Shown: in pieces, positions 16,753 to 59,477 of the stretch
How positions within the stretch are numbered: position 1 is the first letter of the stretch
Layout: every line of letters begins with the position of its first letter
IMG/VR virus record: IMGVR_UViG_3300035665_003403
Coordinates: 32,001-96,000 of that record
Length of the DNA: 64,000 bases
Source: a virus
Reading direction: 5' to 3' (one strand)
Made by a program: the position numbers and the translations under genes
The notes under the pieces: generated by a model
What the model was told of the DNA's origin: nothing
What the model saw: the letters and a program-made list of their open reading frames with translations, nothing else
Database searches by the model: none

Positions 16753-19596
16753 TTAAATATCATCGAATGAAGCCCCAGCGTTTGTTAGTACGAAGTCAAT
16801 CTTTATAAACTCTAGTGAACGAGTTGGTTTCAACCAAATAGTTGCATTCAATTCATTTCTATCCAAGTCTTCTGGTGCATCAGATATAGCCACTCTAAAG
16901 TCAATAAGACCTCTTTGTGTTCTAATATTATTAAGGATTGGGTTAACCATAGCTAAGAATTGGCTTCTAACTACTGAATCATTTTGTTCGAAGATAAGTC
17001 TTAAACAAGCTGATGAAATCAACTTTCTAGTTTGCAATAAAAGTCTTCTAACATTTATTCTATTAAGGGCTGTTTCATTAACTTGAAGTGTTTTATTACC
17101 CCAAATCTTAATACCTTCAGTATTGAATGTGAATATTGGGTTAACTCTAGCATCCAAAAGAGTTTCATTTTCACCAACTGTTAATTTCTTTCTTGCTTTG
17201 ATAGCATCCACGTTACCTCTTTGAAGACCAGCAACTGCGAACCAAGAATAAGATATATTATCAGTCAAAGCTATGTTTCTAACAACATCTCTTGTTGGTG
17301 GAACGTACACATAAGCATTATTTTCAGAATCCAATATTTGAATCCAAGGCCAATATGTTGCTGTGTAGCTACTATCATATAAACCATCAAGTGAATCTGC
17401 AACATCAGCTGCTGATATAACATCACCACTAGCATCTGTATCTGGTGTTGTAACGATATAAAGTGAGTCACTTCTATCATCTTGAATCATATCGATTGTA
17501 GCTTCAACCAAGTTACTATTATCGAATGTATCGATACCTGGTGTAGCCAATACGTTAATATTTATAGCTTCAGGGTTATTAAACGTCCAAATTGCTTCAA
17601 GGTAAGCATAGTAATCGGATGTGATACCTAAATCACCATTTGTAAGTGTTCTATTTGCGAATGTATCAACCAATAGACCAGCAGCACCTTTAGTTCCATT
17701 TATCGTATATGAATCTTGGTTACTTCTTCTAGTTCTATAGATATCCCATCCATCAAAACCACCATAAGGTGCCATTGTGAATTTACGAGCATAAATTTTC
17801 TCATAAGGAGTATTTAGTAATCCAGCTTCAGTTCTAAATTCAGCATCACCAGTATCAAATAAGAATATTGGTGAGTAAGTACCTCCACTTGAGTTAATTA
17901 CTATTTCAACACCATCAATAGTTGCTCCTGTAGCATCGATATCCATGTGGAATCCTTTTGTTAATCCAGTCCACATATCTAAAGTAGAACTTTCTGGTTT
18001 TCCTTTGTAATCAAAGAAGTCAGCATCAATACCGATAGTATTTGATAAACCTAAATAATATTTTCTTTTGTTTTCAAAAGCACTATAAGATGTTTTATAA
18101 GTGATTGATGGAGAAAGAACTGATGAATTACCATTTTCATTATAATCTCTAACTGGATACCCAATAAACCCAGCAGGGAATGCTTCACTTATATCATTTT
18201 CAGTATCAAATTCAACTAAAACATATAAAGATTTTGAAGCATATTCACCATCTAACGTACCTATTTTCTTACCAATATAATTATTAGATTCTGGGTCTAA
18301 TGTACATCTAGTAAAGCTTTCCAACACTTGAATATTAGCATCAGTATCATAGAATCCTCTAACAATAACATCAAACTCTTTTGTATCTGGTTTAATATTA
18401 GTGATTGATATCTTAAACTGCTCATTTGCCGCATTACCATCAGAAATTGTCCAAAACCTGAATAATCTAAGAACTTTATTACCTCTTAATTCTGATACAA
18501 CATATGGTGTAACAGCTGGAGCAAATTCCACCAAATAATCATCAAATTTATTACTATAATTAATAGGTGTTAAGTTAACACCTCTAACTTTTTCATCATC
18601 ATTGTAATTTTCGAACATTTCTGAATAGAATTCTTCAACAAACAATGCTGTTTTACCATCTTGGGCACCTCTACCTAAAACCTTAGGTAAGTAATTTCTT
18701 TTTGTTTTATCCAAAGATAATCCATAACTAAACGCACCTTGTGTTGTTGATGCTCCTGTTAATGTGAAGTCACCTAATGGATTTGTTGTAGCACCAGTAA
18801 CTGATGGGTTAAACCCAACTCCAGTAGCACCAGTAACTTCAAAATCAACCAATTGTGTTGTTTGATTAACAGTTCCTCTAGACCTTAATAAGGCTACCAA
18901 TTTATTTTCAACATCAGAATAAGATGTACCAGAATAAAAAGTTGTAACACCACTTGTTGTTCCAGTTAAATATGAACCACTTGTACCAGTAGATATAACA
19001 TTCAACGTAAATGAAACACCACTAAAGTTATCACCAGTTTTTAAATAATATGGTGATATTGATGAAGTTGTACCAGTATTTGATACACCCAAGAAAGCTA
19101 ATTGGTCTGTTAAAGTACCATTATTTATTAATGATTGAATCAATGAAACACTTGAAGAAACTACCACGTTTGTTCCACCAGTAGTTGCACTATAAGTTAT
19201 CAATGATGCAACATTTGTTGGGCCACTTGTAATACCATATGTACTATTATCCATAGCTGCATCTAATGTAATACCCCATGCTAAACCAGCGTCATAACCA
19301 GAATAACCTAATACTCTAGTTACAAATAATTGATTTGATTGACTAAGATAAGATTTAGCAATATATGCCAATTCATATTTAGGGGCACCAGTATCTTTTA
19401 TTAACGTATTATCTAAACCACCAAAAAATGATTGGAATTCATTATAATTGCTAATGAATATAGGTTGAAACGCTGGTCCAATTGTTGTTTCACCAACCAA
19501 ACCTAATGTTGTAACACCAACTTGACGGGCTACATATGTTAAGTCTCTTTCTGATGTGTAAATACCTGGACTTACGAATACTCTTGATTCTGACAT
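16753..19596 (-). CDS. Tail sheath protein (gp18-like)
   Basis: FVSPGIYTSERD...GLVGETTIGPAFQP; YTATYWPW; WFAVAGLQRG; IWGNKTLQ..ALNRINVRRLL; KPTRSLEFI. Confidence 0.95.
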   Translation of the reverse strand: MSESRVFVSPGIYTSERDLTYVARQVGVTTLGLVGETTIGPAFQPIFISNYNEFQSFFGGLDNTLIKDTGAPKYELAYIAKSYLSQSNQLFVTRVLGYSGYDAGLAWGITLDAAMDNSTYGITSGPTNVASLITYSATTGGTNVVVSSSVSLIQSLINNGTLTDQLAFLGVSNTGTTSSISPYYLKTGDNFSGVSFTLNVISTGTSGSYLTGTTSGVTTFYSGTSYSDVENKLVALLRSRGTVNQTTQLVDFEVTGATGVGFNPSVTGATTNPLGDFTLTGASTTQGAFSYGLSLDKTKRNYLPKVLGRGAQDGKTALFVEEFYSEMFENYNDDEKVRGVNLTPINYSNKFDDYLVEFAPAVTPYVVSELRGNKVLRLFRFWTISDGNAANEQFKISITNIKPDTKEFDVIVRGFYDTDANIQVLESFTRCTLDPESNNYIGKKIGTLDGEYASKSLYVLVEFDTENDISEAFPAGFIGYPVRDYNENGNSSVLSPSITYKTSYSAFENKRKYYLGLSNTIGIDADFFDYKGKPESSTLDMWTGLTKGFHMDIDATGATIDGVEIVINSSGGTYSPIFLFDTGDAEFRTEAGLLNTPYEKIYARKFTMAPYGGFDGWDIYRTRRSNQDSYTINGTKGAAGLLVDTFANRTLTNGDLGITSDYYAYLEAIWTFNNPEAININVLATPGIDTFDNSNLVEATIDMIQDDRSDSLYIVTTPDTDASGDVISAADVADSLDGLYDSSYTATYWPWIQILDSENNAYVYVPPTRDVVRNIALTDNISYSWFAVAGLQRGNVDAIKARKKLTVGENETLLDARVNPIFTFNTEGIKIWGNKTLQVNETALNRINVRRLLLQTRKLISSACLRLIFEQNDSVVRSQFLAMVNPILNNIRTQRGLIDFRVAISDAPEDLDRNELNATIWLKPTRSLEFIKIDFVLTNAGASFDDI

Positions 19597-19693
19597 AATT
19601 TTATTTTCTTAATTTTTAATTTATTTTAAGCTCTGCTTAGTTATAAATATTAAGAAATAAATGAAAGTATTCTTTACTTTTTAAAAAATTTAA

Positions 19694-19909
19694 TTAATGA
19701 CCATAAATATAATCAATCAACTCTTGTATGGTATTAAATTTATTCCCATCAATTATCATATCAATAGTTAATACCCTGATTGAATTATCCAATTCAACAT
19801 GAGCCATATACTCATCGATTATTTCAAATCCATTTTCGTATAGTGAATATGTGAATGGTAAAAACTCACCATCCATAATTACTCCACCTTGTGTACTTTG
19901 ATTACTCAT
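19694..19909 (-). CDS. Small hypothetical protein (possible fibre chaperone)
   Basis: 71 aa, directly after a fibre-like gene. Confidence 0.5.
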   Translation of the reverse strand: MSNQSTQGGVIMDGEFLPFTYSLYENGFEIIDEYMAHVELDNSIRVLTIDMIIDGNKFNTIQELIDYIYGH

Positions 19910-19912
19910 AAA

Positions 19913-21613
19913 TTAAATCCTTTTAACTGTCATGTAAGATAATGTTTGTGTTTCAGCTGATGATGCCATTTGACCAGCAATTAATAAATAAACATCATTA
20001 TCCCAATTGATTGCCACACTTGAAACGTTATTTAACGGTGTTGAATCACTTGTATATGTACCAGCCACAAATACAGCTTCGGTTCCATTTCCTGTTCCAT
20101 TTGTGACCTTAATTGGAAGTGTACGTTGCATATATGTTGCAGCTAAGTTTGCAGCGGAAGTTGATGTACCAATTAATGTTGCTCCAGCTAATGTTGGTGA
20201 AGTATTAAAGTAAAATCTATTTGTCGGAATAACTGTCACACCATTTTTTCTTCCTCTCATTTCCATCCTTATAACATCTCCAGCTACATATGTTCCACCT
20301 GAAATTAATACTAAACCAATTAAAGTATTTGATGCTGCTGTTGTTCCACTTTGGTCAATTCCATTTCCATAAATTACATTATTATTTCCAGATGAATAAC
20401 CAGTTATAATAACATTATTTCCATCATTACGTCTTAAAGTTGTTGTACCATTTGCAAATGTACCACCTGTTACATATATATCAGTTGATGAACTTCCTGT
20501 TGTAAATCCAGTTACGTTAAAGGTTCCACCTGTGTTATTTGTAAAAATAGCAGTTCCATTACTATAAGTACCCCCTGTAACTCTAATATCTAATGGTAAA
20601 TTTTGATATGTTGTTGCCGATATTGTTGTTGCCGAAACACCAGACGTAAATCTAGTTTCACCACTAACGGTACCACCAGATAATGGTAAGTATTCACCAC
20701 TTAATGATGATGTTCCACCAGTACTAAACCCACTTACACTGAACGTTCCACCTGTGTTATTTGTAAAAATAGCAGTTCCATTCGAATATGTACCACCAGT
20801 AACATAGACATCAAATCCTGACGAACCGCTTATTGTTGACACATCACGTAGTGAAATAGTTCCGTTATTATCTCTAACTAAAATATTACTTAATGAATTA
20901 TTTGTTGATGCTGATAAAATACTTAAAAAAGGTACAAAAAGTGTATTATTTCCATTTACCGAAATATTTTCCCCTCCAATAATAGCAGACCCATCACCAA
21001 TTAAAGATGAGTTTTTAGACAAAACAAAAGATGTGTAACCAGATACTTGACTACCATCCCCACCAATTAAACCAAAATCACTTCTATTTATATTGTTTGA
21101 ACCAAAACCAACCCCACCTATACCTCTAACAGAAACTTCATAACCAATAGCTACGGAATAATCACCAACAGCATCAGTTGATGAATCATTTAATGTTTTT
21201 AAAGAAAAATTACCACTTGAACCACTACTCCAATATGTATCGGAAATAGTACCACCTGTTGTAAACCCAGTTATTGGTATATTAACATTATCATTTCGTA
21301 TTAAAGTCAATGTTTGTCCATTCAATGTTCCACCAGTAACATAAATATCTGTTCCACTACCACCAGTTAATTGATTAACTGTGGCAAATGGATTAGCACC
21401 ACTAGGTGATGATGCATTCGTTATTGCAGCTATTTGATTTGGTGTAAGTATTGTAAAAGCACCCCATGTACTAATATCATCAGTATTCATATATGCAATT
21501 CCAGTAGAGTAATCAATATAGAATGTACCACGTTTACTAACATGGATTGGAATTCCATCTCCAGATTGAAGTAATACACTACCTATTGATATTGACCTAA
21601 CATTTGTTGCCAT
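19913..21613 (-). CDS. Tail fibre/appendage protein with DxYVTGGT repeats
   Basis: Gly/Thr/Ser-rich; repeats of DIYVTGGTYSNGTAIFTNNTGGTF; short YadA-head-like segment. Confidence 0.65.
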   Translation of the reverse strand: MATNVRSISIGSVLLQSGDGIPIHVSKRGTFYIDYSTGIAYMNTDDISTWGAFTILTPNQIAAITNASSPSGANPFATVNQLTGGSGTDIYVTGGTLNGQTLTLIRNDNVNIPITGFTTGGTISDTYWSSGSSGNFSLKTLNDSSTDAVGDYSVAIGYEVSVRGIGGVGFGSNNINRSDFGLIGGDGSQVSGYTSFVLSKNSSLIGDGSAIIGGENISVNGNNTLFVPFLSILSASTNNSLSNILVRDNNGTISLRDVSTISGSSGFDVYVTGGTYSNGTAIFTNNTGGTFSVSGFSTGGTSSLSGEYLPLSGGTVSGETRFTSGVSATTISATTYQNLPLDIRVTGGTYSNGTAIFTNNTGGTFNVTGFTTGSSSTDIYVTGGTFANGTTTLRRNDGNNVIITGYSSGNNNVIYGNGIDQSGTTAASNTLIGLVLISGGTYVAGDVIRMEMRGRKNGVTVIPTNRFYFNTSPTLAGATLIGTSTSAANLAATYMQRTLPIKVTNGTGNGTEAVFVAGTYTSDSTPLNNVSSVAINWDNDVYLLIAGQMASSAETQTLSYMTVKRI

Positions 21614-21674
21614 GTATATAAATTATTTAATAACTAACCACATAAATAAAAGTTAATGTGTAATTTGTTAATTT

Positions 21675-23159
21675 TTATTCCCAATATCCATTAATAGAAA
21701 CATTACCCCTATAAACTAATAATGGTGTTTCAACCCCTATTGGTATTTTTAATATTATGTGTAAATAAGTTCCAGATTCAACCATAAGTGGTGTTATTAG
21801 TTCATTATTTATCATTGGTCTTGCCATAGTTCCAACAGATGATATTGTTGGTATGTTTTGAACACCTAAACCTAATCTTCTAGTTGTTTTTGTACCACCA
21901 GTAACAGAATCCAACTCACCAAGTGATAAATCTGTTCCACCAACACCAACAACCCACTGAAGTGTTGTTCCAGTACTACCAATTGTTGCACCAGAAGTAA
22001 AAGTATTTATATTAATGTTGTTTATAACCAGTGTTTTACCAGGTATATCAGCTGTTCCATTTGGATTTAAATAACCAAATAAAATGTAATCATTTTCACT
22101 TGAACCACTCGCTGGAATTAAAAAATTTCCACCGATAGTTGTGTAACCACCAGTTGTATTATCAAGTAATGATAATCGTGTTGGTGATAAATTATTTAAT
22201 ATATTAGCTGAAGTTGTTCCACCAGTTAAATTTGATTGACCATCTGGTAAACTTATTGATGATTGACCATTAGTTACCATCAAAGATTTAAAATCTTTAT
22301 TACTTTTAAAATCACTGAAAAGAACACCAAAATCACAAATACTAATTTTAATTGGGGATGAAACAACACCACTATTTCTATTTCTAACAAATAAGGGAAG
22401 TGAATTTGGAAGTGATGTACGATATCCAGCGGTTGTTAATGTAAAGGTTGTTGATGTAAAAAAAACAGTTGTTGCTGTTGGTGTTATCTTACCGATAATG
22501 GTATCATCAACCCAAAACTCAACATTGTTATCAATTATTGCTAATATATAGTCATTATATTCATTTATCGTTGGTGTGTGTATGTTTACAATAGTAGTTT
22601 CATAACCACTATAACTAACAACACCATTAAGGGTTCCACCACTAACTCTAAAAAAAACACCATCAGTAGGTGTTGTTGTTCCAGTTGTGGTAGCTAAACC
22701 AAATTCAATTATATTATTTGTTTGAAAAGTATTATCAAATTTGGTTTTAAAATTAACATAAATAGGGGCGTTTTCAAAAATAGGAAAGGTTCTAAATGTT
22801 TGAACCATTGAATAATCACCACTACCTACACTAGAATTCGCATTTAAGTTAAGACAACCACCAGATAATACTATTGTTTGATTAGTAGTAGTTGCTTTAT
22901 ATTTACTATTGTTTAATACATTACTTGAAAAATTATCTTGCCAAAAAGGTACTTCAACATTTTTAAGTAACCTATAATCTTGAGTAGTATGTAAAGCTCT
23001 TAATGTGGGTATACCAATAACTGAACCATCATCAACTTCAGATATAATATAATTATATCCAGATTCATTTATGATTGTTGGTAAAGTAACTTTTAAATTA
23101 TTATTTGAATCTACTTCAACTTCATTTATACTTTTACCGCCCTTTATTTTTATACTCAT
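21675..23159 (-). CDS. Beta-rich virion protein (possibly lectin-like), paralogue of 23161..24600
   Basis: Collinear with its neighbour (VDSNNNLKV, PTDGVFFR.SGG, PLMVE.GTYLHIILK.PI, VSINGYWE). Confidence 0.6.
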   Translation of the reverse strand: MSIKIKGGKSINEVEVDSNNNLKVTLPTIINESGYNYIISEVDDGSVIGIPTLRALHTTQDYRLLKNVEVPFWQDNFSSNVLNNSKYKATTTNQTIVLSGGCLNLNANSSVGSGDYSMVQTFRTFPIFENAPIYVNFKTKFDNTFQTNNIIEFGLATTTGTTTPTDGVFFRVSGGTLNGVVSYSGYETTIVNIHTPTINEYNDYILAIIDNNVEFWVDDTIIGKITPTATTVFFTSTTFTLTTAGYRTSLPNSLPLFVRNRNSGVVSSPIKISICDFGVLFSDFKSNKDFKSLMVTNGQSSISLPDGQSNLTGGTTSANILNNLSPTRLSLLDNTTGGYTTIGGNFLIPASGSSENDYILFGYLNPNGTADIPGKTLVINNININTFTSGATIGSTGTTLQWVVGVGGTDLSLGELDSVTGGTKTTRRLGLGVQNIPTISSVGTMARPMINNELITPLMVESGTYLHIILKIPIGVETPLLVYRGNVSINGYWE

Positions 23160-23160
23160 G

Positions 23161-24600
23161 TTATTCCCAATATCCGTTAATTGAAACCAAACCTCTTATT
23201 ATTTGTGTTGCTGTTGCTGTTGATATAGGCATCTTAAGTATTATATGTAAATAAGTTCCAGCTTCCACCATAAGTGGTGCTGTGAATTTTGCATCAATAC
23301 TTGGACTTGCTACAGTACCAACAGTTGTTCCTGTAACCATAGATTGAATTCCCAAACCTACTCTTCTCGCTGCTCTTGTCCCAGCAGTAACAGAATCAGT
23401 TGTAAGAAGAGTAACAGCTGTTCCACCTACACCAATTGTCCATTGCAATACAGTTGCTGTAGTTGCAATAGGTACTACAGCAACATAAGTATCTATCTTA
23501 ACACCAGTTACAACAAGCGTTTTTCCAGGTATAGCAGCTGTTGCAGCTGGGTTTAAATAAGCAAAAAGAGCGTAATCAGTTTCAGCACCACCTAATGCTG
23601 CAAATTGAAACTGTCCACCAAGAGTTGCATAACCAGCTGTTGTATTAGAAAGAGAAGCAGATACTGGACCAGTAATGTTAACAATATTTGCTGTTTGAGT
23701 ACCAGCAGCAACAGCTGCTGAACCATCTGGTGTTGAAATAGATGATTGTCCGTTGGTTACCATGGTTGTACTCCATTCTTTCCCAGAATCCATATCACCA
23801 AGACTTATACCTAATTGTGCTATATTTAATTGAACAGCCGTACTTACAGCACCAGAATTATAATTTCTTAATAATAAAGGTAAAGAATTTGATTGACAAG
23901 GACTACCAAGACCAACAGGTGTTGGTAATGTCGTTAAAATAGTATCATTAACCCAAAAAGTACACTTATCTTGACCAATTGTTATGGCATAATGATATAC
24001 AATATTAGCTATTGGTACATGTATATTAGGTATAACAACTTCAGCACCGTTATTATTAATAACAGCATTTAATTGTCCACCGCTTGCTCTAAAGAAAACA
24101 CCATCAGTTGGTGCAGCAACACCTGAAGCCAACCCCAAACCAAATTCAATAACACTATTTGCTTGAAGTGGGTTTGAAAATTTAGCCTTTATATCAAAAT
24201 ATAAAGGATATGTGTTAAATAAAGAAAAACTCTTAAATGTTTGTACCCTAGCAACGTTGGTTGATGCAACGGCATTACCAGCATTTAAATTTAAAAAACC
24301 ATTTGCTAGTGTTATTGTCATTGTTGATGTAACACCAATATATTTTGCGTTATTTAATACAGCATGACTAAAAGTATCTTGCCAAAGTATTTTATCAATA
24401 CCAGTTCTAAGACGATAATCTTGAGATACATCTATTGGTCTTAATAATTTACTTCCAGTTACTTGACCATCATCTACCTCACCAACTGATATTGAATACC
24501 CAGCACCTGATAATACCACTGGTAAATTAACCTTTAAATTATTATTAGAATCAACATCAGCTAAGATATTTGAAACACCACCTTTTATAATTACACTCAT
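23161..24600 (-). CDS. Beta-rich virion protein (possibly lectin-like), paralogue of 21675..23159
   Basis: Collinear with its neighbour; ATATTTATA at 24617-24625. Confidence 0.6.
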   Translation of the reverse strand: MSVIIKGGVSNILADVDSNNNLKVNLPVVLSGAGYSISVGEVDDGQVTGSKLLRPIDVSQDYRLRTGIDKILWQDTFSHAVLNNAKYIGVTSTMTITLANGFLNLNAGNAVASTNVARVQTFKSFSLFNTYPLYFDIKAKFSNPLQANSVIEFGLGLASGVAAPTDGVFFRASGGQLNAVINNNGAEVVIPNIHVPIANIVYHYAITIGQDKCTFWVNDTILTTLPTPVGLGSPCQSNSLPLLLRNYNSGAVSTAVQLNIAQLGISLGDMDSGKEWSTTMVTNGQSSISTPDGSAAVAAGTQTANIVNITGPVSASLSNTTAGYATLGGQFQFAALGGAETDYALFAYLNPAATAAIPGKTLVVTGVKIDTYVAVVPIATTATVLQWTIGVGGTAVTLLTTDSVTAGTRAARRVGLGIQSMVTGTTVGTVASPSIDAKFTAPLMVEAGTYLHIILKMPISTATATQIIRGLVSINGYWE

Positions 24601-24648
24601 ATTCTTACATTTTTATTATAAATATCTTATATTTTTATATTATCACTT

Positions 24649-29226: not shown

Positions 29227-29228
29227 GA

Positions 29229-30284: not shown

Positions 30285-30286
30285 TA

Positions 30287-30805
30287 TTATTTAGTATTAA
30301 ATTCTGATTCATCCACTGGGGCACAAGTTACAGTTCTTGATGCTTTTTTAAATCCTAATATTGTATGTTTGCTATCAAAATTCTTAATTCCGTTATTAAC
30401 AACTGAATAAGTTCTAAATTCAGTTTCACTAATTTGGTAAGACACATAATCACCAAGGTTGATTTCAACCCCCAATTCAATCAATTGTTGCTCAAAAATA
30501 CCAAAAACAAATGGCTTATCTTGAATATCCATCATAGTTCCATTTGGGTTAAAAGACTTCGCTTCAGGTTCTTCAATTATCGGCTGCACCTTCAATTCAA
30601 CTGGTGGCAAAAATTGAATCCCATCTTCAACTGATTCACCATATAAATCGTCATATTGTGTCGTAACCCTATCAACTCTATATAATATGACAGTATAATT
30701 ACCATCACCCTCAATGGCTTCACGGCTCATACTTATCTCTAAATTAAAATCTTCACTAGAGAAAAATTTATTTACACGATTTATAGGAATAATAGGTTTA
30801 TTCAT
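30287..30805 (-). CDS. Head-closure/neck protein (gp14-like)
   Basis: VILYRVD...DDLYGES...FLPPVEL...L.ELGVEINLGDYV. Confidence 0.55.
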   Translation of the reverse strand: MNKPIIPINRVNKFFSSEDFNLEISMSREAIEGDGNYTVILYRVDRVTTQYDDLYGESVEDGIQFLPPVELKVQPIIEEPEAKSFNPNGTMMDIQDKPFVFGIFEQQLIELGVEINLGDYVSYQISETEFRTYSVVNNGIKNFDSKHTILGFKKASRTVTCAPVDESEFNTK

Positions 30806-30916
30806 GAGTTTTATATATAAATATAGCTATTGACTTTTAAAACAAAAATAACCATATTTAAATTAAAAATTTAAAAGTCAATATTTGACATAAAGAAAAA
30901 TAAATTTTAACACAAA

Positions 30917-32734: not shown

Positions 32735-32987
32735 AGTGTATACAACAAAAACATGTCCTTATTGTAAAACACTTAAGGATATGTTAACTGAAAATAACGT
32801 TGAATTTGTTGACGTTGATGTTTCAGATGAAAAAAATAATAAAGAATTTGAAATGGTAATTAAGATTACAGATTCAGATATGGTACCCATTATAAAAGTT
32901 GATAAAAATTTATTAGTTCCAGAAAAATCATTTAAATCAATACCACAAGCTGTTGAAATGATAAAAACGATAATTAATGGTAAATAA
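32721..32987 (+). CDS. Glutaredoxin / NrdH-like redoxin
   Basis: VYTTKTCPYC active site; VP cis-Pro motif. Confidence 0.9.
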   Translation: MNRVRVYTTKTCPYCKTLKDMLTENNVEFVDVDVSDEKNNKEFEMVIKITDSDMVPIIKVDKNLLVPEKSFKSIPQAVEMIKTIINGK

Positions 32988-33010
32988 GCTATATTTATAA
33001 ATAAAAGATT

Positions 33011-34165
33011 ATGGCTATAACTAGAGAGGAACAAACAAAGTTATTTAACAATTTCAGAGCAACTGTTGGTGCCCCACTTAGAAATATTGAAATAACCGAT
33101 GACCAATTATGTATCTTATTAGAATTATCAATTGAAGATTATAGTCAAGCAGTTCAAAATTATTTGATTGAACATCAATGGCAAAGCCTATTGGGTCAAA
33201 ATGTTGATACACTTGATATGGCATTTGCGTTGAGCGTTAGAGGAATGAATTTCTCAACACAATATACTTATGCATACTCTAAGCAAGTTGGATTACAAAC
33301 AAATGGACCTTGGGAACTTAAAAAAGATTTTATTGATATTGAAGCTGGAAGACAAGTTTATCAAATTCCAGCTGGTAGAGAAGTAAATGAAGTTCTTTGG
33401 ATTACACCATCAACCGTAAATCAATCATTGATGGCTAGTTATGGTGGTTTAGATGCTGGTTTTGGCTTCGGTGGGGGTTTTGCTCAAGTTGGTGGTGGTT
33501 ATGGTTCAACAACAGGTGGATATGCTGGTAGAAGTGGTTATTATATAGCACCAGCCTTTGATGTGTTATTAATGGCTAGTGATATGAATTTAAAAAATAG
33601 AATTGTTAGAAGTGAGTTAACATACAAGGTAACCGCTGGACCTAATGGTACTAAATTGTTGCATTTGATAAGCACTCCAGGTTCCAAGTTAAGTTTTGGT
33701 TTGGGTGTTGGTAGTAGAGTAAGCAATGGGATAAATTTAACTGGATGTAGAGTTTGGTATCACTACTATGATACAACAGATGCTAATGTCGATGATTGTA
33801 GAAATGACAATCCAGATATTATTAAGATGCCTAATGATGTTCCATTGGATAAATTAGATTATGCATCATTTAACGAACCAACAAAGGTTTTAATACGTCA
33901 AATATTATTTGCAAAAGCTAAACAAACACTTGGTAAAACAAGAGGTAAGTTTTTAGGTGTTATTGGATTACCAGAAGGTGAAAGAACTTTAGATTGGGAA
34001 ACGATGACAACTGAAGGTAACGAAGAATATAAAGCAGTGATGGAAAAATTAGAAGAAAGATTAGCTAGGTTATCTAGCACAGAACAATTAAAGAGAGCAG
34101 CTGAAGAAGCTGAATTCCTAAATACTCAGCTCAAATACAGGCCATTAGGTATCTATGTTAAGTAA
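33011..34165 (+). CDS. Neck / head-tail adaptor protein (gp13-like)
   Basis: VGAPLRNIEITDDQL...AKAKQTLGKTRGKF..IGLPEG..TLD; ATATTTATA at 32991. Confidence 0.65.
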   Translation: MAITREEQTKLFNNFRATVGAPLRNIEITDDQLCILLELSIEDYSQAVQNYLIEHQWQSLLGQNVDTLDMAFALSVRGMNFSTQYTYAYSKQVGLQTNGPWELKKDFIDIEAGRQVYQIPAGREVNEVLWITPSTVNQSLMASYGGLDAGFGFGGGFAQVGGGYGSTTGGYAGRSGYYIAPAFDVLLMASDMNLKNRIVRSELTYKVTAGPNGTKLLHLISTPGSKLSFGLGVGSRVSNGINLTGCRVWYHYYDTTDANVDDCRNDNPDIIKMPNDVPLDKLDYASFNEPTKVLIRQILFAKAKQTLGKTRGKFLGVIGLPEGERTLDWETMTTEGNEEYKAVMEKLEERLARLSSTEQLKRAAEEAEFLNTQLKYRPLGIYVK

Positions 34166-34168
34166 TGT

Positions 34169-34194
34169 AAAAGTGGTTTAAAATAACCACTTTT
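34169..34194. terminator. Inverted repeat between convergent genes
   Basis: AAAAGTGGTT-TAAAAT-AACCACTTTT. Confidence 0.6.
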
Positions 34195-37100
34195 CTTTTT
34201 TTACACCATCATTTACACCCTCATTTACACCCTCATTTACACCCTCATTTACACCCTCATTTACTACGTCATATACTACGTCATATACTACGTCATCTAT
34301 AACTTCATTAAAGAAATCAATTTCCGATTCCAATACCACTCTCTCATCAAATTTATCATTATAATCAATTTCACCACCATCTGATTCTTCATTTTCATCA
34401 TCTATTTTTCCTATCTCCAAAGATATGGTTTTTATATTATGTTCTTGTATTTTCTTAACAATATCTTCAATCTCTGATATTTCACCAATAATCAAATCAG
34501 CATTTCTAACTCCAGTTAAAAATTCTTTGGTTGTTTCGTTATTTACCCATAAATCAAACCTATCATCTTTTTTAACATTTTTATCCAATGATTCATAAAA
34601 TATATCTCTACTTTTAGCTAAGCTCTCATATTTGAATATTTGTATCAATGGCATCAAAGGTTCATTCCATTCATTAGAAACAAACACACCATCATCATTT
34701 AAATGTGCGAATCCGTAAATTTCAATAGGTATTTCACCTAATGACCTAATCTTACCGTAATCTTTTACCTCTAATCTTTTGAATATATCATCTAACCTGT
34801 CTTTAGCATAGGCAATATCTTTTATTTTTTTGATTCTCATCCTCTCGGTGTAATCAGCAACAATCAAATCCCAATCAGTTTGGGTCATATTGTTTGGTGT
34901 CTTATTAACTCTCATCCAAAATTTTATTTCCTTGTCTTCCATAGTCATTAAATCCTCATAACTATCTTGATGTTCTGGTTCAAATGGATTTCCATTTGTT
35001 AATTTACACTGCTCAATTGTAAAAGCTGATTTTTCTTGCAACACAAATAATTTACTTTTTTTATTTTTAACAACGTTAATCAACACATGATTTCTAACTT
35101 CAGTATCAAAACATACTAATAACGGTTTAATTCTAGTATTAAACGCAGCTAAGTATCTAGCAACATTATAGTCATCAACTGATAATTCAGCATTTATTTC
35201 ATTGATTCTATCAATTATTTCGTTATCTTCAGGTGTATTAATTAGTTCTTTATTTAACATTTCCAATTCCTTAAGCATTTCGAAATCTTTTTCAACAATA
35301 CTTGGTTCGATAAGTTTACAATTCATTTGTAAGGTAATCTTACCAGTTTCTTTATCCTTAATAGATTTTAAATCACCATGTGATTTAACAGTACCAATAT
35401 TAACATAATATAACATGTCACCCATATCAACATATAGATTATGTTTTAAAGCTAATTCCATATGAGCTTGCTTAGGTAAAGGGTTACCTTTTTTATTAAC
35501 CTTATCGGCTCTTTTTTTATATTCCTCAAGTGTTGATTTAACCTTGCTTTTTGATGCAATCTTAACCAATGGGATTTGCATATTATAAATTTTATCCACA
35601 TAAGAATAATAATACCTTATAAACCCATAACCATCACCTTTTAATAAAAGTTTTATCCCATAATCTAAAAATTCTTCAATATATGTTGGCATTTTTTTAG
35701 ACTTGATAGAATTCCCAACGAATTTAATCTTACCACCAATATCATTTGCGTAATTTTTCCTAGCAAAGTTAATAGTTGAATCAATTACATCATCAATATC
35801 CAATCCCATCCATCCAATCATATAAGTTTCATTAAATTCAGCTAAAGCAGCATCAATCCCATATAATACCTTACCACCATCACTCTTTGTTTTCCAATGC
35901 GACCCCTTGGGTGTATATGAATAACTATCAAGTTCAATTGGTACCGCAAAATTAACCCCATCAGTATCTAATAATAGGGGTGTCATATTAAATTTATCTG
36001 AGAAGAATTTAACCATCAATCTAAGATACTGTCTACCCCTACATGTTGTTTCCTCAGCGCAGTCAGTATCACCCCAATTAAATATATAAGGCGCACCATA
36101 TGAACCAAACCAAGAGTTAGCTAATATCTTTAAAGGGAGTTGTTTTTTATCATATAAGTTAGCTAATTTTTTATTTTCACTAATATCATCCAATAATTTT
36201 TTCTTTTCTTCTTCATTTAAGTCTTTATTATTTTCTAATTTTTGAACTAAACTTTTAACTATATTCTTATGTGTTGTGGTTAACTCTTTATTCTCATCTC
36301 TTGTTTCAACCACATAAGATAATAAACCACTCATTGCACCACTAATATCTAATTTAGGGAATATACCCCATGTTAATTCAGTTTTAGGGTATAGCGCAGC
36401 ATAATCTAATTTGTAAACATCCTTAGAGAAGCCAACTCTTAATAATCTAGATAATCCACCAGTAAAATCTTTCTTAACTTCAGTACTTGGAATTGCTAAT
36501 TTATTCTCATATGACCAAGCTGACATAATTAATTTCCACTGTCCAGCTGTACCCATAGTTGAACTTCTCATGTATGTTGTTGGAAGTAATTTTGCAATCA
36601 AAAACGATGCTTGATTAAAAATATTATCAATTTGCTCTGTTTCCCATAAGTCATCCAATAAATATCTTCTAACCAAGAATGCCCCATCAACTACCTTATA
36701 GTTATTTTTTATTTCTTTATTAGGTTTAATCTTATACCAATCACCATTAGTGTCATTAAAAGCATAAGTATTGTTTTTATCATTCCATAAATCAAATAAT
36801 ACATTACCATTAATGTAAACCCTATTCTTTTTAGCAATATTAGAGTACTTTGTGATATATTTTAAAGACCAAGATTTGATATCAGAATTAATTGCCTGTG
36901 CCCTTCTGACTGAATGAGCAATATCTAATATATTATGACCATACATATGGGCTTGCATGTAGTGTTCAACCTCACCACCCAATTTAATCATGGATTTCTT
37001 ACGTTTGAATTTACTATTGGGTGATAGTGTTGTCGCTAAATCAGAAACATTACTTCCTAACCTACTAACTCGTTTCTCAATAAAATCCCAATCGAAATTT

Positions 37101-37807
37101 TCGGAATTATAACCAGTAATTATATCTGGTTTAAGATAATCAATTACCCCAAAAAACTTTTTAATATTGGTTAATTCAGAATTTCTTAACTCCTGTGGCG
37201 TGTTTCCACTTATTTCAATTACACCTTCTAACCCTCTATTATCCCTTATCCCAATTTGGAATATAGCATCTCTATTAGGATTCAGTCCCTGTGTTTCCAA
37301 GTCAAATTGGAATCTATGTAAATCATTGTAATCATCAAATCCTTTAAATAACCTTTTACCCGTTTGAATCATGAATTGTTCAACTGGTGTGTAAGCTAAA
37401 AATAAGTTTCTATCCTCTTTTCTGAAGATATCTAACCCACCATCCCTAAAATAATTAATAAGTGAATTGTATGATTTATCACAAATGGCCATGAATTTAT
37501 ACCCATTTTCCATTCTATCTGGAATATGCCCACTATCATCATGTGTCCTTAGGTTTTTAATAGTAATACCATACCTTTCTCTAGCTTTTATTTGCTCAGA
37601 ATGCTTACCCCTATATAAAATCTTATTAACGTCTTCCTTGAACCACAAGAATGGTTTGTAACTATGTGTTTCAGTCCTCTTTCCAGTTTCTGGGTCATTT
37701 ATTACCAATACAACATTATTTGAGTTATACTCTGGTTCTATTGTAATTATATACTTTTGGTCATCTCGACCCAATAAAAACGCTTCAATTTCTTCTTTTG
37801 GAATCAT
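34178..37807 (-). CDS. Family B DNA polymerase with 3'-5' exonuclease
   Basis: ExoI FDLET, ExoII GYNSENFD, ExoIII YLLDD; polymerase motifs LDYAALYP, KILANSWFG, DTDG. Confidence 0.93.
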   Translation of the reverse strand: MIPKEEIEAFLLGRDDQKYIITIEPEYNSNNVVLVINDPETGKRTETHSYKPFLWFKEDVNKILYRGKHSEQIKARERYGITIKNLRTHDDSGHIPDRMENGYKFMAICDKSYNSLINYFRDGGLDIFRKEDRNLFLAYTPVEQFMIQTGKRLFKGFDDYNDLHRFQFDLETQGLNPNRDAIFQIGIRDNRGLEGVIEISGNTPQELRNSELTNIKKFFGVIDYLKPDIITGYNSENFDWDFIEKRVSRLGSNVSDLATTLSPNSKFKRKKSMIKLGGEVEHYMQAHMYGHNILDIAHSVRRAQAINSDIKSWSLKYITKYSNIAKKNRVYINGNVLFDLWNDKNNTYAFNDTNGDWYKIKPNKEIKNNYKVVDGAFLVRRYLLDDLWETEQIDNIFNQASFLIAKLLPTTYMRSSTMGTAGQWKLIMSAWSYENKLAIPSTEVKKDFTGGLSRLLRVGFSKDVYKLDYAALYPKTELTWGIFPKLDISGAMSGLLSYVVETRDENKELTTTHKNIVKSLVQKLENNKDLNEEEKKKLLDDISENKKLANLYDKKQLPLKILANSWFGSYGAPYIFNWGDTDCAEETTCRGRQYLRLMVKFFSDKFNMTPLLLDTDGVNFAVPIELDSYSYTPKGSHWKTKSDGGKVLYGIDAALAEFNETYMIGWMGLDIDDVIDSTINFARKNYANDIGGKIKFVGNSIKSKKMPTYIEEFLDYGIKLLLKGDGYGFIRYYYSYVDKIYNMQIPLVKIASKSKVKSTLEEYKKRADKVNKKGNPLPKQAHMELALKHNLYVDMGDMLYYVNIGTVKSHGDLKSIKDKETGKITLQMNCKLIEPSIVEKDFEMLKELEMLNKELINTPEDNEIIDRINEINAELSVDDYNVARYLAAFNTRIKPLLVCFDTEVRNHVLINVVKNKKSKLFVLQEKSAFTIEQCKLTNGNPFEPEHQDSYEDLMTMEDKEIKFWMRVNKTPNNMTQTDWDLIVADYTERMRIKKIKDIAYAKDRLDDIFKRLEVKDYGKIRSLGEIPIEIYGFAHLNDDGVFVSNEWNEPLMPLIQIFKYESLAKSRDIFYESLDKNVKKDDRFDLWVNNETTKEFLTGVRNADLIIGEISEIEDIVKKIQEHNIKTISLEIGKIDDENEESDGGEIDYNDKFDERVVLESEIDFFNEVIDDVVYDVVYDVVNEGVNEGVNEGVNEGVNDGVKKEKWLF
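34200..34296. repeat. In-frame 12-bp tandem array in the polymerase C-terminus
   Basis: Four TCATTTACACCC units plus TCATATACTACG units, encoding VVYD/VNEG repeats. Confidence 0.9.
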
Positions 37808-37826
37808 ATATTTAAAACTAATTCCA

Positions 37827-37834
37827 CAAATTTA
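37827..37834 (-). promoter_or_regulatory. Bacteroidota-type -7 element (TAAATTTG) upstream of the DNA polymerase
   Basis: TAnnTTTG about 20 nt before the ATG. Confidence 0.45.
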
Positions 37835-37845
37835 CTATTTTAAAA

Positions 37846-38220
37846 TCACTTTTTAATAGAACCACCAATCACATTTATGAATAATTCTTCAGAAATAGGT
37901 GTAAGCAAAGTTCCACTACCATCCAATACCTCAATTGAAAATTGTCCAACATATCTACCAGCATTTTTAGTGTCTATAGCCCTAAAATTATATGTTATGA
38001 AGTATTCTTCACAACAATCACTAGTAGGTGTAACCAATTCAGTACCAGCCAATCTATTACCAATCACATGTTTTCCTGTGGTAACCTCCCACATATTGAA
38101 TTTTATTGTTGAATTTTGTAATTTATCAAAAAAATTGTTAAAATCATATCTACCATCATTTATTAGTTCCATTTTAAGAACAGGTAAGGTAGCACCCTTC
38201 ATTATATTAAATTCCATCAT
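37846..38220 (-). CDS. BppU-N-like virion protein
   Basis: FNIMKGATLPVLKMEL...YNF...DT..AGRYVGQFSI....G.L..P. Confidence 0.5.
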   Translation of the reverse strand: MMEFNIMKGATLPVLKMELINDGRYDFNNFFDKLQNSTIKFNMWEVTTGKHVIGNRLAGTELVTPTSDCCEEYFITYNFRAIDTKNAGRYVGQFSIEVLDGSGTLLTPISEELFINVIGGSIKK

Positions 38221-38231
38221 GTTTTTAAGTT

Positions 38232-39962
38232 TTATAATATCGTTATACCATACCTCACAGCCTCACGCCTCACCAAATAGTCAATTTCAGAAAAATTCAA
38301 ATCACAAATATTAAATTTGAATTGAGATATGCCACCTAAAAATGTACCAGCGAAATTCTCTTCAATCGGTAATCCAAGGTCTCTTGGGTCAGGCCCATCA
38401 AATGTGAAGCTTTCCAATAATCCCTGAGAACCACCACCCAAGCTTATATTGAATGGTACACCGACTTGTTTTAATTTATTATCACCAAGCCTTTTACCAA
38501 TGAATTCATCAAAATCATTTACAACGTATTTTAATTTTCCGTTAACATAAAACATAAGTCTACCTTTTCTTCGTTTACCATAAATTAAATCACACGTATC
38601 ATAAGTATCATTCATTTTAAATCTAACCATAATACTCGTCCAAACATCACCACTTACAACACCACTAGCAGAATACCCCTCTTGAACCGTAATACCACTT
38701 GAATAAGTATCACCACTACATGAACCAGTTACTGTTAACAACCTATATCCAATACTACCATCTGATTTTATTCTAAACCCTAATGCATTATCAACAATAT
38801 CCGCTTCATAATCTAATTCTAGTTTATCTGATGTAAAACCACTGAAGCTACAAGCTGTTTGATTTCCATAACCATCATGACTTCCACCACAACTTAGGCA
38901 TGAGGTACCACCAGTACTTGCTCTACCATAAATCAAGAATGGGTTTGTTGTATTTGTTATTTCTTGTTGATGTGAAGTTACTACAACACCATTACCATCA
39001 TAATTACATGCATTATATGTACCTAAACCATCATGACTTCCACCACAACTTAGGCATGAGGTACCACCAGTACTTGCTCTACCATAAATCAAGAATCCGT
39101 TCTCAATCAAATCAATATTAATAATCGGTGGAGACAATGGAATACCAACATTATAATCACCAGTCAAAACAATATCAGTTTCTTTTAATGTTGTACAATA
39201 TCCAGATACACTATCAGTACAACCACTAGGAACTGTACAACCACTAGTACATCCAGTATTCAATCCTTCAAAAACATTCCAAAATTTATTTTCAGCTCTG
39301 GTTCCCATATAAAAAAAGAAACCCTCATTATTTGGGTTCAAATCATTCAAGGTAGTACCAGTATGTCCACTACAGTTATCTGTTTTATTTAACCAAAATT
39401 CAGCAACCCAACCTTTAGATACTCTATTTGGTAAAACTTCATATGTTGAACCATCTAATTTATAATAACCTTGATAAAATCCACCACAAAATTGTGCATA
39501 TCTACCAATGCTTGTATTAGCACTCAAAATATCTATTGGATATATAACATTACCTGTAAAACCACTAACTCTATTTAATTTTAATCTAGTATCACCAGAT
39601 AAAATAGTTAGTGTTGTTCCAGTTAATGCCGACATTATTTCAGTATTAGATGTTCCAGTTAAACCAGATATATCAATACCACCGTTATCAATACCTGTTA
39701 AACCATATGTTGAAAATGTATACCCAGTATTAATGGCATCACCCCAACTAATTAAACTATATATAGTGTTAGCAGATGTTGACCCAGTAGAATATATATC
39801 AGAGTTAGCAAAATCAAAATAAGAAACCAAACAAGTACCAGATGTAACACCAGTAATGGGTGATGTTATTTTACCATCATTAGCCAATTTAAAATCCCAA
39901 TAATCATGGTTTGATAATTGAAGTTTAAGTTTATTACTATTATAATTATTAATGTTTGTCAT
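38232..39962 (-). CDS. Cys-rich virion protein with LamG-like domain
   Basis: AEFWL, LMFYVNGKL, ISLGGG, F.GGISQFKF; duplicated CLSC module. Confidence 0.55.
   Translation of the reverse strand: MTNINNYNSNKLKLQLSNHDYWDFKLANDGKITSPITGVTSGTCLVSYFDFANSDIYSTGSTSANTIYSLISWGDAINTGYTFSTYGLTGIDNGGIDISGLTGTSNTEIMSALTGTTLTILSGDTRLKLNRVSGFTGNVIYPIDILSANTSIGRYAQFCGGFYQGYYKLDGSTYEVLPNRVSKGWVAEFWLNKTDNCSGHTGTTLNDLNPNNEGFFFYMGTRAENKFWNVFEGLNTGCTSGCTVPSGCTDSVSGYCTTLKETDIVLTGDYNVGIPLSPPIINIDLIENGFLIYGRASTGGTSCLSCGGSHDGLGTYNACNYDGNGVVVTSHQQEITNTTNPFLIYGRASTGGTSCLSCGGSHDGYGNQTACSFSGFTSDKLELDYEADIVDNALGFRIKSDGSIGYRLLTVTGSCSGDTYSSGITVQEGYSASGVVSGDVWTSIMVRFKMNDTYDTCDLIYGKRRKGRLMFYVNGKLKYVVNDFDEFIGKRLGDNKLKQVGVPFNISLGGGSQGLLESFTFDGPDPRDLGLPIEENFAGTFLGGISQFKFNICDLNFSEIDYLVRREAVRYGITIL
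38870..39096. repeat. Exact 71-bp direct repeat (38870-38940 = 39026-39096)
   Basis: Encodes FLIYGRASTGGTSCLSCGGSHDG twice. Confidence 0.9.
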
Positions 39963-39964
39963 AA

Positions 39965-42037
39965 TTAATACCTAACTTGAGTATACTCACATTTACCGTA
40001 CCAATTAATATCCGCTGTATTTAAACCAGTTACATTAACAACAATAGCTTCGTTAGGTACATCAACTGATATTGCAGCTGAGGTTGCAGCCAATGAAGCA
40101 TCACCATGAGTTGATGATAGAGCTGTACTACCAACTAATGATACTGTACCAGCAACATTCTTAACTAAACAATTACCTCTCCATTCTTTAGCATCACCAT
40201 TTGCCACATCAACACACACAATAGTAATGTTAATAAAATAAGTGTGTCCCGTATCAATTGTGAATCTAGCATATGTGCTATCAATATACATTTCTGTTTG
40301 AACATTATTTGTTGTTGCAGTATATAATGGAATAATACCATATTGACCACCATCTAAATTTAAAACATAAGCACCATTACTTCTAGCCCACTCATAATTA
40401 TGTGTGGCTGTTGCATAACCACCAGCATGAGAATAATCAGCATTAGCGGTACCACCATTTTCAGCATGACTACACAAACCATAAGCCTGACCACTACCCT
40501 CAGCATGTGAATTAATACCACCAGCAATACTAATACCTTCAGCATGTGAATAATCACCAGATGCTGTTGACCTACTACCTTCAGCATGTGAATATAATCC
40601 AGAAGCTAAAGTTAAAGAACCCTCTGAATGGGAAGCAACACCAGAAGCTAAAGTTAAATAACCCTCTGAATGAGAAGCAACTCCATTTGCAGTCGTACCA
40701 CTTCCCTCAGAGTGTGAAGCATCACCAATTGATGAATTAAATGAACCCTCAGCGTGAGAGCAATTTCCACCACCAGTGTTATAAGAACCTTCAACATGAG
40801 ATGTTACACCAGTTGAATAATTATTTTGTCCTTCAACATGAGAATAATTACCAGAAGATAAATTTTGACCACCCTCAGCATGGGATGCAAACCCAGAAGC
40901 TGTATTTTGACTCCCTTCAGCATGTGAATAACTACCACTAGCTGTGGTGTTAGTACCTTCAGCGTGTGAATTTAACCCAGAAGCAATATTAGATTGACCC
41001 TCACTATGCGCTGCCAAACCACTAGCTGTTGTCCTAAATCCTTCACTATGGGAATATAAACCAACGGACGTTGAATAAGAACCTTCAGCATGTGATGAAG
41101 TTCCACTAGCTGTAGTAAAACTACCCTCAGCATGTGAAAAATCACCTAAAGATACTGTTTTACCACCCTCAGCATGAGAACCATTACCGTTAGCAGTTGT
41201 ACCACTACCCTCAGCTAAACTATAATCACCAGTAGCAGCTATTCCGCTATTATTTTTAGCCTTAACAGAATGAGTTCCAGAATTACCACTAGTCCAATAC
41301 GTTATAGCACTTAATGCAAACGTACCACCAGTATTATTTCTAAAAGTAGAAACATCGTTAAATTGATTATAAGTTGCACCAGTTACAAAAACATCAAAAC
41401 AACATCCACTTGAACTACCACTTGTAGTACCTGTGTTTGGTGACCAGTACCCTAAACCTTCTGGTGTCAAACAGGTCCATACATAACCAACAGTTGGGCT
41501 ATCACTAATAATTAATCTATTTGTCCTAGTAATACCAGAAACATCCACCCAAATAGTTCTTCCAGTAAAATCTAATGTATTAGCTGATAAAAATTGAACA
41601 ACACTCGAAGTAACACTACCAGTGTATGCTCCACCACCAACATCAACAATTTGAACCACACTAATATCAAAATTAACACCAGAATAAGTTAACACAACAT
41701 TATTATCATCAATAACCGTTGTTGTATTAGATGTAAATATAATACTAGTATTTTGAGTAATACCACTATTTGATGGTGTCAACGCTGATAAAACACTATT
41801 ACCTAATCCCATCCTAGCGTCAAACCAACTATAAACAGTTGTTCCAGTATTACCAGAAAATGTTGAAACATATAAAGTATATTCTTCAGTAACACCAGAT
41901 GAAATAGTAGATGGACCACTAGGTAACAAATTAAAAGGCTGACCAAATATAGTACCACCAGATAATTCAGTAAATGTCTCAATTCTCTGTTTTATTTGTC
42001 TATTATCCGAATAATCTAATTTAGTTATGAATCCCAT
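39965..42037 (-). CDS. Tail fibre/adhesin with about 20 YadA-head-like SHAEG repeats
   Basis: ATG at 42037 (MGFITKLDYS) follows ATATTTATA; the track's extension to 42223 overlaps a real plus-strand gene. Confidence 0.75.
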   Translation of the reverse strand: MGFITKLDYSDNRQIKQRIETFTELSGGTIFGQPFNLLPSGPSTISSGVTEEYTLYVSTFSGNTGTTVYSWFDARMGLGNSVLSALTPSNSGITQNTSIIFTSNTTTVIDDNNVVLTYSGVNFDISVVQIVDVGGGAYTGSVTSSVVQFLSANTLDFTGRTIWVDVSGITRTNRLIISDSPTVGYVWTCLTPEGLGYWSPNTGTTSGSSSGCCFDVFVTGATYNQFNDVSTFRNNTGGTFALSAITYWTSGNSGTHSVKAKNNSGIAATGDYSLAEGSGTTANGNGSHAEGGKTVSLGDFSHAEGSFTTASGTSSHAEGSYSTSVGLYSHSEGFRTTASGLAAHSEGQSNIASGLNSHAEGTNTTASGSYSHAEGSQNTASGFASHAEGGQNLSSGNYSHVEGQNNYSTGVTSHVEGSYNTGGGNCSHAEGSFNSSIGDASHSEGSGTTANGVASHSEGYLTLASGVASHSEGSLTLASGLYSHAEGSRSTASGDYSHAEGISIAGGINSHAEGSGQAYGLCSHAENGGTANADYSHAGGYATATHNYEWARSNGAYVLNLDGGQYGIIPLYTATTNNVQTEMYIDSTYARFTIDTGHTYFINITIVCVDVANGDAKEWRGNCLVKNVAGTVSLVGSTALSSTHGDASLAATSAAISVDVPNEAIVVNVTGLNTADINWYGKCEYTQVRY

Positions 42038-42048
42038 TTGATTTTTAT

Positions 42049-42080
42049 TATAAATATTCTGATTTTTAGTTATATTTATA
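42049..42080. promoter_or_regulatory. Back-to-back ATATTTATA elements (putative late promoters)
   Basis: Minus-strand copy at 42049-42057 and plus-strand copy at 42072-42080, each just ahead of an ATG. Confidence 0.6.
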
Positions 42081-42086
42081 TATTGT

Positions 42087-47539: not shown

Positions 47540-47755
47540 ATGAAAACTAAAATAACTATAGATTTTGATAGTGAAAGAGATAATCAAATAATTTTAATGA
47601 AAGAACCCAGCGATGAAAAACCAGATTTGGTTGCTGACATTATTGGCACATGTGCTGCGTTATGTGAGCTAATTGATTATGGTTCCACAAATAAAATAGT
47701 AGATAAAGAGGGTTCAATATTAGCTGCTATCAAAAGTCTTAACCAATTAAGATAA
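47540..47755 (+). CDS. Hypothetical protein
   Basis: ATG 47540 (MKTKITIDFDSER) preferred, since it avoids overlap with the minus-strand gene. Confidence 0.55.
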   Translation: MKTKITIDFDSERDNQIILMKEPSDEKPDLVADIIGTCAALCELIDYGSTNKIVDKEGSILAAIKSLNQLR

Positions 47756-50640: not shown

Positions 50641-50644
50641 ATTT

Positions 50645-54929: not shown

Positions 54930-54980
54930 ATATTTACTTATTAAATTTTATTTAGTAAATTTATTTAAAACTAACAAATT

Positions 54981-56298: not shown

Positions 56299-56303
56299 AT
56301 AAT

Positions 56304-59476: not shown

Positions 59477-59477
59477 T

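Follow-up and report, generated by a model that had tools for sequence, protein, structure and literature searches.

A hydrophobic-[Ser/Thr]-Gly-x-Thr motif concentrated in outward-facing tail proteins of a clade of giant phages

Why should one short peptide pattern recur in tail proteins that share no detectable homology, in a genome that also carries a cluster of glycosyltransferase (GT) genes? The question is raised by a 64,000-nucleotide stretch of viral DNA, bases 32001-96000 of the IMG/VR record IMGVR_UViG_3300035665_003403, which is referred to here as the window. The record is 148.8 kb long and an estimated 44% complete, and the window has a G+C content of 29-30%. A tail sheath, tube, baseplate hub, wedge, portal and major capsid protein are recognized by Pfam or PHROGs profiles, and the source is a giant phage with a contractile tail. 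The closest sheaths from cultured phages are only about 30% identical to its own. An original prediction held that the tetrapeptide [S/T]-G-x-[T/S] saturates virion proteins but not enzymes, and that it is an acceptor for glycosylation by phage enzymes. The analysis described here defines a narrower motif, hydrophobic-[Ser/Thr]-Gly-x-Thr, which is genuine, selected, specific to one clade of phages and located in outward-facing parts of the tail. The motif is new to us.

The original counts of [ST]G.[ST] are exact on recount: 14 in the sheath, 18 in a 576-amino-acid (aa) protein called p576, 22, 62 and 18 in fibers A, B and C, 7 and 1 in a pair of paralogues, and 1 each in the polymerase and the helicase (coordinates are collected in Table 1). 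Such numbers could be an artifact of a composition rich in Gly, Ser and Thr (G/S/T) and of internal repeats, and could arise even if the tetrapeptide were not selected. The fibers are 38-42% G+S+T, and near-identical copies of a single 36-aa module (ten in fiber B, four in fiber A and one in fiber C) supply 34 of 62, 13 of 22 and 2 of 18 of their respective sites, or 49 of the 102 fiber counts. Two null models were used, one shuffling whole proteins and the other shuffling inside blocks of 20-50 aa after the module had been masked. The excess survives both. Whole-protein shuffles give z = 5-12, and masked local shuffles leave 14 observed versus 4 expected sites in the sheath, 18 versus 3.5 in p576, 28 versus 10-11 in fiber B, 16 versus 7 in fiber C and 9 versus 3 in fiber A, a 2.3- to 5-fold excess across these five proteins. 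Repeats alone are therefore rejected as an explanation, since the module accounts for about half of the fiber counts and the excess remains once it is masked.

Pooled statistics, obtained with the module masked and shuffling inside 30-aa blocks, rest on 92 non-module instances. Those ending in Thr number 75 versus 14.7 expected (5.1-fold, z = 17), whereas the sibling pattern [ST]GxS, which has nearly identical composition, occurs 17 times versus 15.9 expected (1.07-fold). Thr at the fourth position is thus upheld and the Ser allowed there by the original prediction is not. This result is reproduced across twelve genomes, and proteins of relatives with as much as 54-56% G+S+T are unenriched. 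A compositional artifact is very improbable.

The first position of the same instances is Ser in 51 and Thr in 41, and the residue that precedes it is mostly hydrophobic or Ser/Thr, so that the true motif is hydrophobic-[ST]-G-x-T. Its parts are weak alone ([ST]G 1.34-fold, GxT 1.77-fold), and the enrichment of the whole exceeds their product. SAxT variants, also mentioned originally, are mildly enriched at 26 versus 15 expected (z = 3). The N-x-[ST] sequon was tried and rejected (1.17-fold, not significant). Codons for the Gly and for the Thr at position 4 are used at background levels, which points to selection on the protein rather than the DNA and excludes a DNA-level word. At position 1, codons that end in T are preferred before GGN, with ACT, AGT and TCT far commoner than ACA or TCA. 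In this context 65% of Thr codons are ACT, versus 32% in the background, and an A-GG junction is thus avoided.

The distribution of the motif separates the tail periphery from everything else, rather than virion proteins from enzymes as had been proposed. Enrichment is found in the sheath, fibers A-C, the 494-aa paralogue and p576, and three more enriched proteins, two of them tail-protein candidates, lie outside the window. It is strongest in p576, with 17 [ST]GxT sites versus 1.9 expected and a single [ST]GxS. The polymerase and helicase are not enriched, as the original prediction expected, but neither are the major capsid protein (3 versus 1.5 expected), portal (1 versus 1.3), tube (1 site), baseplate wedge and hub, and two tail-internal candidates of 1313 and 816 aa have no sites (0 versus 3.2 and 0 versus 1.1). 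The 1313-aa protein, encoded at 668-4609 among the tail genes, carries an OmpA-like domain, is 25% G+S+T and is free of the motif.

Of the 14 sheath sites, 11 fall in an insertion (residues 124-283) and three in residues 543-573, whereas the conserved C-terminal core (600-947) is free of them. The identity of this protein is supported by PF17482 (Phage_sheath_1C) above cut-off, by PHROG 23 (E = 9e-58) and by PF04984 below cut-off (E = 3e-5). The tandem paralogues differ in the motif. Seven sites in the 494-aa copy align to positions that are mostly substituted by Ala in the 479-aa copy, which is thus an internal control in which the fold is the same and the motif is gone.

At least six proteins contain the motif. 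The original argument that shared ancestry does not explain its recurrence applies to the sheath, p576 and the fibers, among which homology is not detectable, but only in part to the fibers themselves, which have the 36-aa module in common. The module has an approximate consensus of D-I-Y-V-T-G-G-T-Y-S-N-G-T-A-I-F-T-N-N-T-G-G-T-F-N-V-S-G-F-S-T-G and includes three N-x-S/T triplets per copy. The YadA_head repeat profile PF05658 matches the fibers below cut-off (E = 0.009), and their match to PHROG 25468 is strong. In p576, a Cys-rich segment (F-L-I-Y-G-R-A...C..C.G) occurs twice, and there is a T-G-C-T-S-G-C-T run.

The motif is a property of the clade. A search with the sheath returned 42 loci at 41-70% identity, and the whole records of 11 relatives were retrieved. 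Among 12 related giant-phage genomes compared, 11 have the motif in excess. In eight (G000, G011, G001, G004, G002, G010, G049 and G051) the genome-wide ratio for [ST]GxT is 2.2-3.1 and that for [ST]GxS is 0.84-1.34, as in G049, where the figures are 154/71 and 65/68, respectively. G003 has a ratio of 1.4 for [ST]GxT. In G006 and G007, giant S/G/T-repeat proteins inflate the genome-wide ratios of both patterns, and the excess is visible in single tail proteins. These giants (G006:C1:204879-211991, 2370 aa, 74% G+S+T; G007:C1:70077-77468, 2463 aa, 51% G+S+T) have an excess of [ST]GxS, not [ST]GxT (221 versus 108 and 106 versus 40), and the G006 protein contains long runs of the G-T-S-G-S-G-G type. 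G008 has no genome-wide motif excess.

Three phages outside the clade served as controls. There is no excess in the sheath, fibers or baseplate of T4 (gp18, 0 versus 1.4 expected; gp34, 1 versus 3.7; gp37, 8 versus 4.9) or in Microcystis phage Mel-JY01 (2 versus 5.6, 0.4-fold), and Flavobacterium phage immuto, with fibers of up to 47% G+S+T, has a weak one (30 versus 19.4, 1.5-fold). These comparisons rule out a generic trait of myovirus tails or of G/S/T-rich fibers.

Conservation of individual sites reveals what is constrained. The p576 family has over 1600 members, on contigs of up to 378 kb, and 62 aligned sequences average 13.7 [ST]GxT versus 1.2 [ST]GxS per protein. Many sites keep the same position throughout, and several are retained down to 34-36% identity. 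Across 61 homologues, position 1 is almost exclusively Ser or Thr, the two being freely exchanged (S30/T30 at one site, S43/T18 at another), while the Gly is invariant and the Thr at position 4 nearly so. Asp, Asn, Lys and Glu hardly occur at position 1. In 109 sheath homologues, sites 211, 215, 543 and 570 show little or no variation, several sites have the same exchange pattern as p576, and Asp and Asn are rare or absent at position 1. The replacement by Asp or Asn that would be expected of an ST-turn type of cap is thus hardly seen in either set. The number of sheath sites varies, since insertions of the same length in relatives hold 2 to 11. Some relatives of the G004 type (L025-L029) have a 1636-aa sheath with an insertion of 887 aa instead of about 200 aa, and 27-28 motif sites.

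The GT and methyltransferase cluster that was claimed at 44-64 kb is present, with profile matches between dUTPase (46582) and PhoH (61076). This interval contains four GT2 proteins, including a conserved core GT, two GT11 proteins, one GT17-like protein and a DUF5672 protein, together with three methyltransferases. A further GT2, conserved throughout the locus-spanning contigs, lies just beyond the end of the window on the far side of PhoH. In 24 relatives the same interval is a syntenic, hypervariable cassette site of 4.4 to 22.4 kb, in which one GT is conserved and the other GTs and the methyltransferases change from genome to genome. Relatives of the core GT number at least 490 in IMG/VR, and a search of GenBank phages returned none. 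This GT is as clade-specific as the motif and present in every locus-spanning contig, and at the level of the clade both are absent from the outside phages tested.

All of the island proteins are predicted to be soluble, with no segment that reaches the threshold for transmembrane hydrophobicity. No flippase, polymerase or priming transferase is encoded in the island, and no sugar-nucleotide short-chain dehydrogenase/reductase enzymes are encoded in the 149 kb of the record. The conserved GTs have no match by PDB sequence search or in NCBIfam. The FkbM and Methyltransf_24 families represented here are normally sugar or small-molecule methyltransferases. Nearer to fiber C lies a conserved open reading frame (ORF) at 44587-45738 that has no family match.

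These features can be united in a model. The motif may be the acceptor or recognition site of a post-translational modification that would take place in the cytoplasm, ahead of assembly. O-glycosylation is the best candidate: it would be started by a conserved soluble GT encoded beside the fiber genes, and enzymes of the variable GT/methyltransferase island would then lengthen the glycan and methylate it. We tentatively prefer this general reading, in which the motif is a sequon for glycosylation or another modification and O-glycosylation by phage GTs is the leading candidate. A fuller version is more doubtful: that the clade coats its outer tail (sheath and fibers) with O-glycans through the sequon [Ser/Thr]-Gly-x-Thr, read by soluble phage GTs, and that the hypervariable island diversifies the glycan in the manner of an O-antigen locus. 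The data show the statistics, distribution and conservation of the motif and the presence of soluble GTs; that any protein is modified, on which residue, and that the island acts on protein at all are inferences.

Several observations weigh against a sequon read by these enzymes. The capsid provides the largest surface of the virion but shows no enrichment. Co-occurrence with GT clusters, proposed originally as a check, yields no support: motif load in the sheath does not track island size in 24 genomes (rho 0.27, p = 0.20), and an early correlation in 11 genomes (rho 0.75, p = 0.008) was lost when 13 more were added. All of the contigs that span the locus carry GTs. GT hits are missing from the G008 contig only because it stops short of the locus, and the overlapping G019, which has an identical polymerase, carries a minimal 4.4-kb island that includes the core GT. 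Phages of this type therefore keep core GTs, yet their sheath and fibers are unenriched; their p576 still is (12 versus 1.2 expected). Avoidance of the motif in proteins of low G/S/T content seemed evident in five related genomes (0.60-fold pooled, P = 0.001), but was not replicated in two further complete genomes, G049 and G051, where the values of 0.82 and 0.89 equal those of the [ST]GxS control. The island could also glycosylate DNA or host glycans instead of protein. A gene of the thymidylate synthase family is present in five of five genomes tested (four of them complete), falling just below the ThyA equivalog cut-off in this phage, and makes DNA glycosylation a possible role of the island.

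Other points against a sequon come from predicted structures and distant homologues, and favor a different explanation in which the motif is a structural block of G/S/T-rich beta domains in this clade, no modification takes place and the neighboring GTs are coincidental. The hydrophobic residue, Gly and the Thr at position 4 would lie on one face of a strand, with the hydroxyl of position 1 and residue x on the other, and the small Gly would permit tight cross-strand or inter-sheet contacts. An AlphaFold2 (AF2) model of the sheath is confident over the insertion (predicted local distance difference test score, pLDDT, of 85-94). By secondary structure, its sites are not the buried beta-turns that the original prediction named as a possible refutation: 8 of 14 are inside beta-strands, which gives them a structural look, and 6 of 14 are in strand-flanking loops. 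Six of the strand-located sites occupy a long hairpin formed by E190-206 and E209-225. The strand ends assigned by DSSP suggest a two-residue turn at 207-208, which would place TG 203-204 opposite TG 211-212 and SG 192-193 opposite SG 222-223. In addition, two other sheath sites are fixed as [ST]GxS, their final Ser being invariant or nearly so, and distant sheaths sometimes have Val, Ile or Leu in place of either Thr (positions 1 and 4), with the Gly best conserved. Position-fixed sites in more than 100 homologues, the duplicated module behind half of the fiber counts, and the lack of GT-island co-variation or of avoidance elsewhere are likewise what a structural element would produce.

Other evidence is harder to reconcile with a purely structural role. 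The fold persists without the motif in the 479-aa paralogue and in relatives. Secondary-structure contexts are mixed, including strand interiors, loops and low-confidence segments. The AF2 model of p576 has a pLDDT of 65, with a core that resembles a concanavalin A (ConA)-like lectin jelly-roll by weak Foldseek matches. Its motif-rich segments fall below a pLDDT of 50, and most sites are in coil or in these low-confidence regions. Position 1 is limited to Ser and Thr, with hardly any of the Asp, Asn or Ala that a capping or exposed position would permit. Beta-rich, G/S/T-rich tail proteins of T4, immuto and Mel-JY01 manage without the motif, as do the G/S/T-rich internal tail proteins of this phage. 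The hydroxyl-specific pattern, its independence of fold and its restriction to the tail surface fit a sequon slightly better. Strand location, fixed GxS sites and the absence of co-variation with the GT island keep a structural block close behind as a nearly as likely, similarly tentative, explanation.

The arguments from specificity, distribution and dispensability would apply equally to some other sequence-directed function of the tail surface, such as phosphorylation, methylation by the island's enzymes, docking of a decoration protein or an assembly chaperone, or binding of a ligand, ice or glycans by a flat surface rich in Thr and Ser. The three methyltransferases in the island are compatible with this possibility. 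For fiber A, some of the Atlas look-alike clusters have a minority of members with an ice-binding family, a lead at scores below 0.9. However, neither a kinase nor any other enzyme that modifies proteins was recognized in the window, methyltransferases of the families found normally act on sugars or small molecules, and four residues would be short for protein docking. We consider functions of this kind unlikely.

Partial precedents for a modification sequon exist. To our knowledge, phage virion glycosylation is documented mainly in mycobacteriophages, and we know of no acceptor rule for it. In the AIDA-I and TibA autotransporters, the soluble cytoplasmic transferases Aah and TibC add many heptoses to Ser and Thr of Gly-rich beta-repeat adhesins. 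A comparable arrangement is predicted here, where the fibers have putative beta-roll repeats like those of the YadA head, but the enzymes belong to GT2, GT11 and GT17-like families by Pfam, and repeat and motif differ. The collagen-like region of Bacillus BclA is O-glycosylated at Thr of G-x-T triplets, with a methylated sugar at the glycan tip. It resembles the present case in its G-x-T core, preference for Thr over Ser, location in a surface filament and methylated glycans (putative here). In contrast, BclA is a true collagen triplet repeat, whereas the phage motif is isolated, preceded by Ser or Thr and set in beta structure. Chloroviruses and mimivirus, which infect eukaryotes, carry their glycans either N-linked to the capsid protein or on fibrils. 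They encode similarly large sets of soluble, cytoplasmic GTs and sugar methyltransferases and use atypical acceptor sites, but are not known to have an [ST]GxT motif.

Among phages, the nearest parallel is in mycobacteriophages, where glycans are placed on C-terminal extensions of capsid and tail-tube subunits and, in the account consulted, no sequon is defined (Freeman et al. 2023, via PMC12619734). As far as that account goes, the two cases share phage-encoded GTs and the proposal that structural proteins bear a coat of glycans. Here, however, the motif is internal and lies on the sheath, fibers and a lectin-fold protein, the capsid (3 versus 1.5) and tube (1 site) are unenriched, and a glycan is only predicted. 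Large aquatic phages named 'moraphages', with predicted Bacteroidota hosts, have a core gene set that includes four GT orthogroups, PhoH, dUTPase, a ClpA-like ATPase and the tail sheath (PMC12619734). All of these genes are found here too, a likeness in gene content. DNA, host serotype and virion have been proposed as targets of the moraphage GTs, and no motif is described there (PMC12619734).

If the motif is a sequon, it would be the first to be defined for glycosylation of bacteriophage virions. Sequence would then suffice to predict which proteins are glycosylated in hundreds of uncultured giant phages, the core GTs of large aquatic phages would acquire a purpose, and short peptides could serve as substrates in enzyme assays. 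If it is structural instead, it would define a new class of beta-domain on the tail surface by a signature both compact and highly specific, and would be a useful marker for annotation.

Table 1. Features of the window that bear on the motif and the GT island; sites are matches to [ST]G.[ST]
Feature	Coordinates	Strand	Remarks
Tail sheath, 947 aa	16753..19596	-	14 sites (10 are [ST]GxT), all in peripheral insertions
Sheath insertion domain (residues ~100-300)	18697..19299	-	11 of 14 sheath sites; hairpin 190-225 with six
Fiber A, 566 aa	19913..21613	-	22 sites, 13 within four copies of the 36-aa module
Paralogue, 494 aa	21675..23159	-	7 sites
Paralogue, 479 aa	23161..24600	-	1 site; 49% identity to the 494-aa copy
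Fiber B, 1525 aa	24649..29226	-	62 sites, 34 within ten module copies; YadA-head-like SHAEG repeats
p576, 576 aa	38232..39962	-	ConA-like lectin jelly-roll core (predicted), duplicated Cys-rich segment
Fiber C, 752 aa from TTG start (original prediction: ATG at 42037)	39965..42223	-	18 sites; YadA-head-like repeats
Conserved ORF	44587..45738	+	In every locus-spanning relative at 47-67% identity, falling to 32% in the most distant
dUTPase	46582..47085	+	Left boundary marker of variable island
Core GT (Glyco_tranf_2_5 / GT2)	49549..50640	+	In all relatives spanning the locus
Variable part of island	50615..60904	+	GT2 (three), GT11 (two), one GT17-like, DUF5672, FkbM methyltransferase, Methyltransf_24 (two)
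PhoH-like ATPase	61076..61828	+	Right boundary marker of island

Three minor observations concern the surroundings of these genes and the relatives. An HNH/homing-endonuclease gene at 13169-14812 (PHROG 559, E = 1e-141) is encoded on the strand opposite to the tail genes that surround it, and most relatives are without it at this site. An ORF at 47755-48315 has weak, sub-cut-off matches to the anti-CBASS protein Acb1 and the 2H phosphoesterase family. In a 193-kb relative (L042/G009), the homologues of the sheath and PhoH are interrupted by in-frame TGA, TAG and TAA codons alike. Stops of all three kinds look like the mark of an error-rich or decayed record rather than an altered genetic code.

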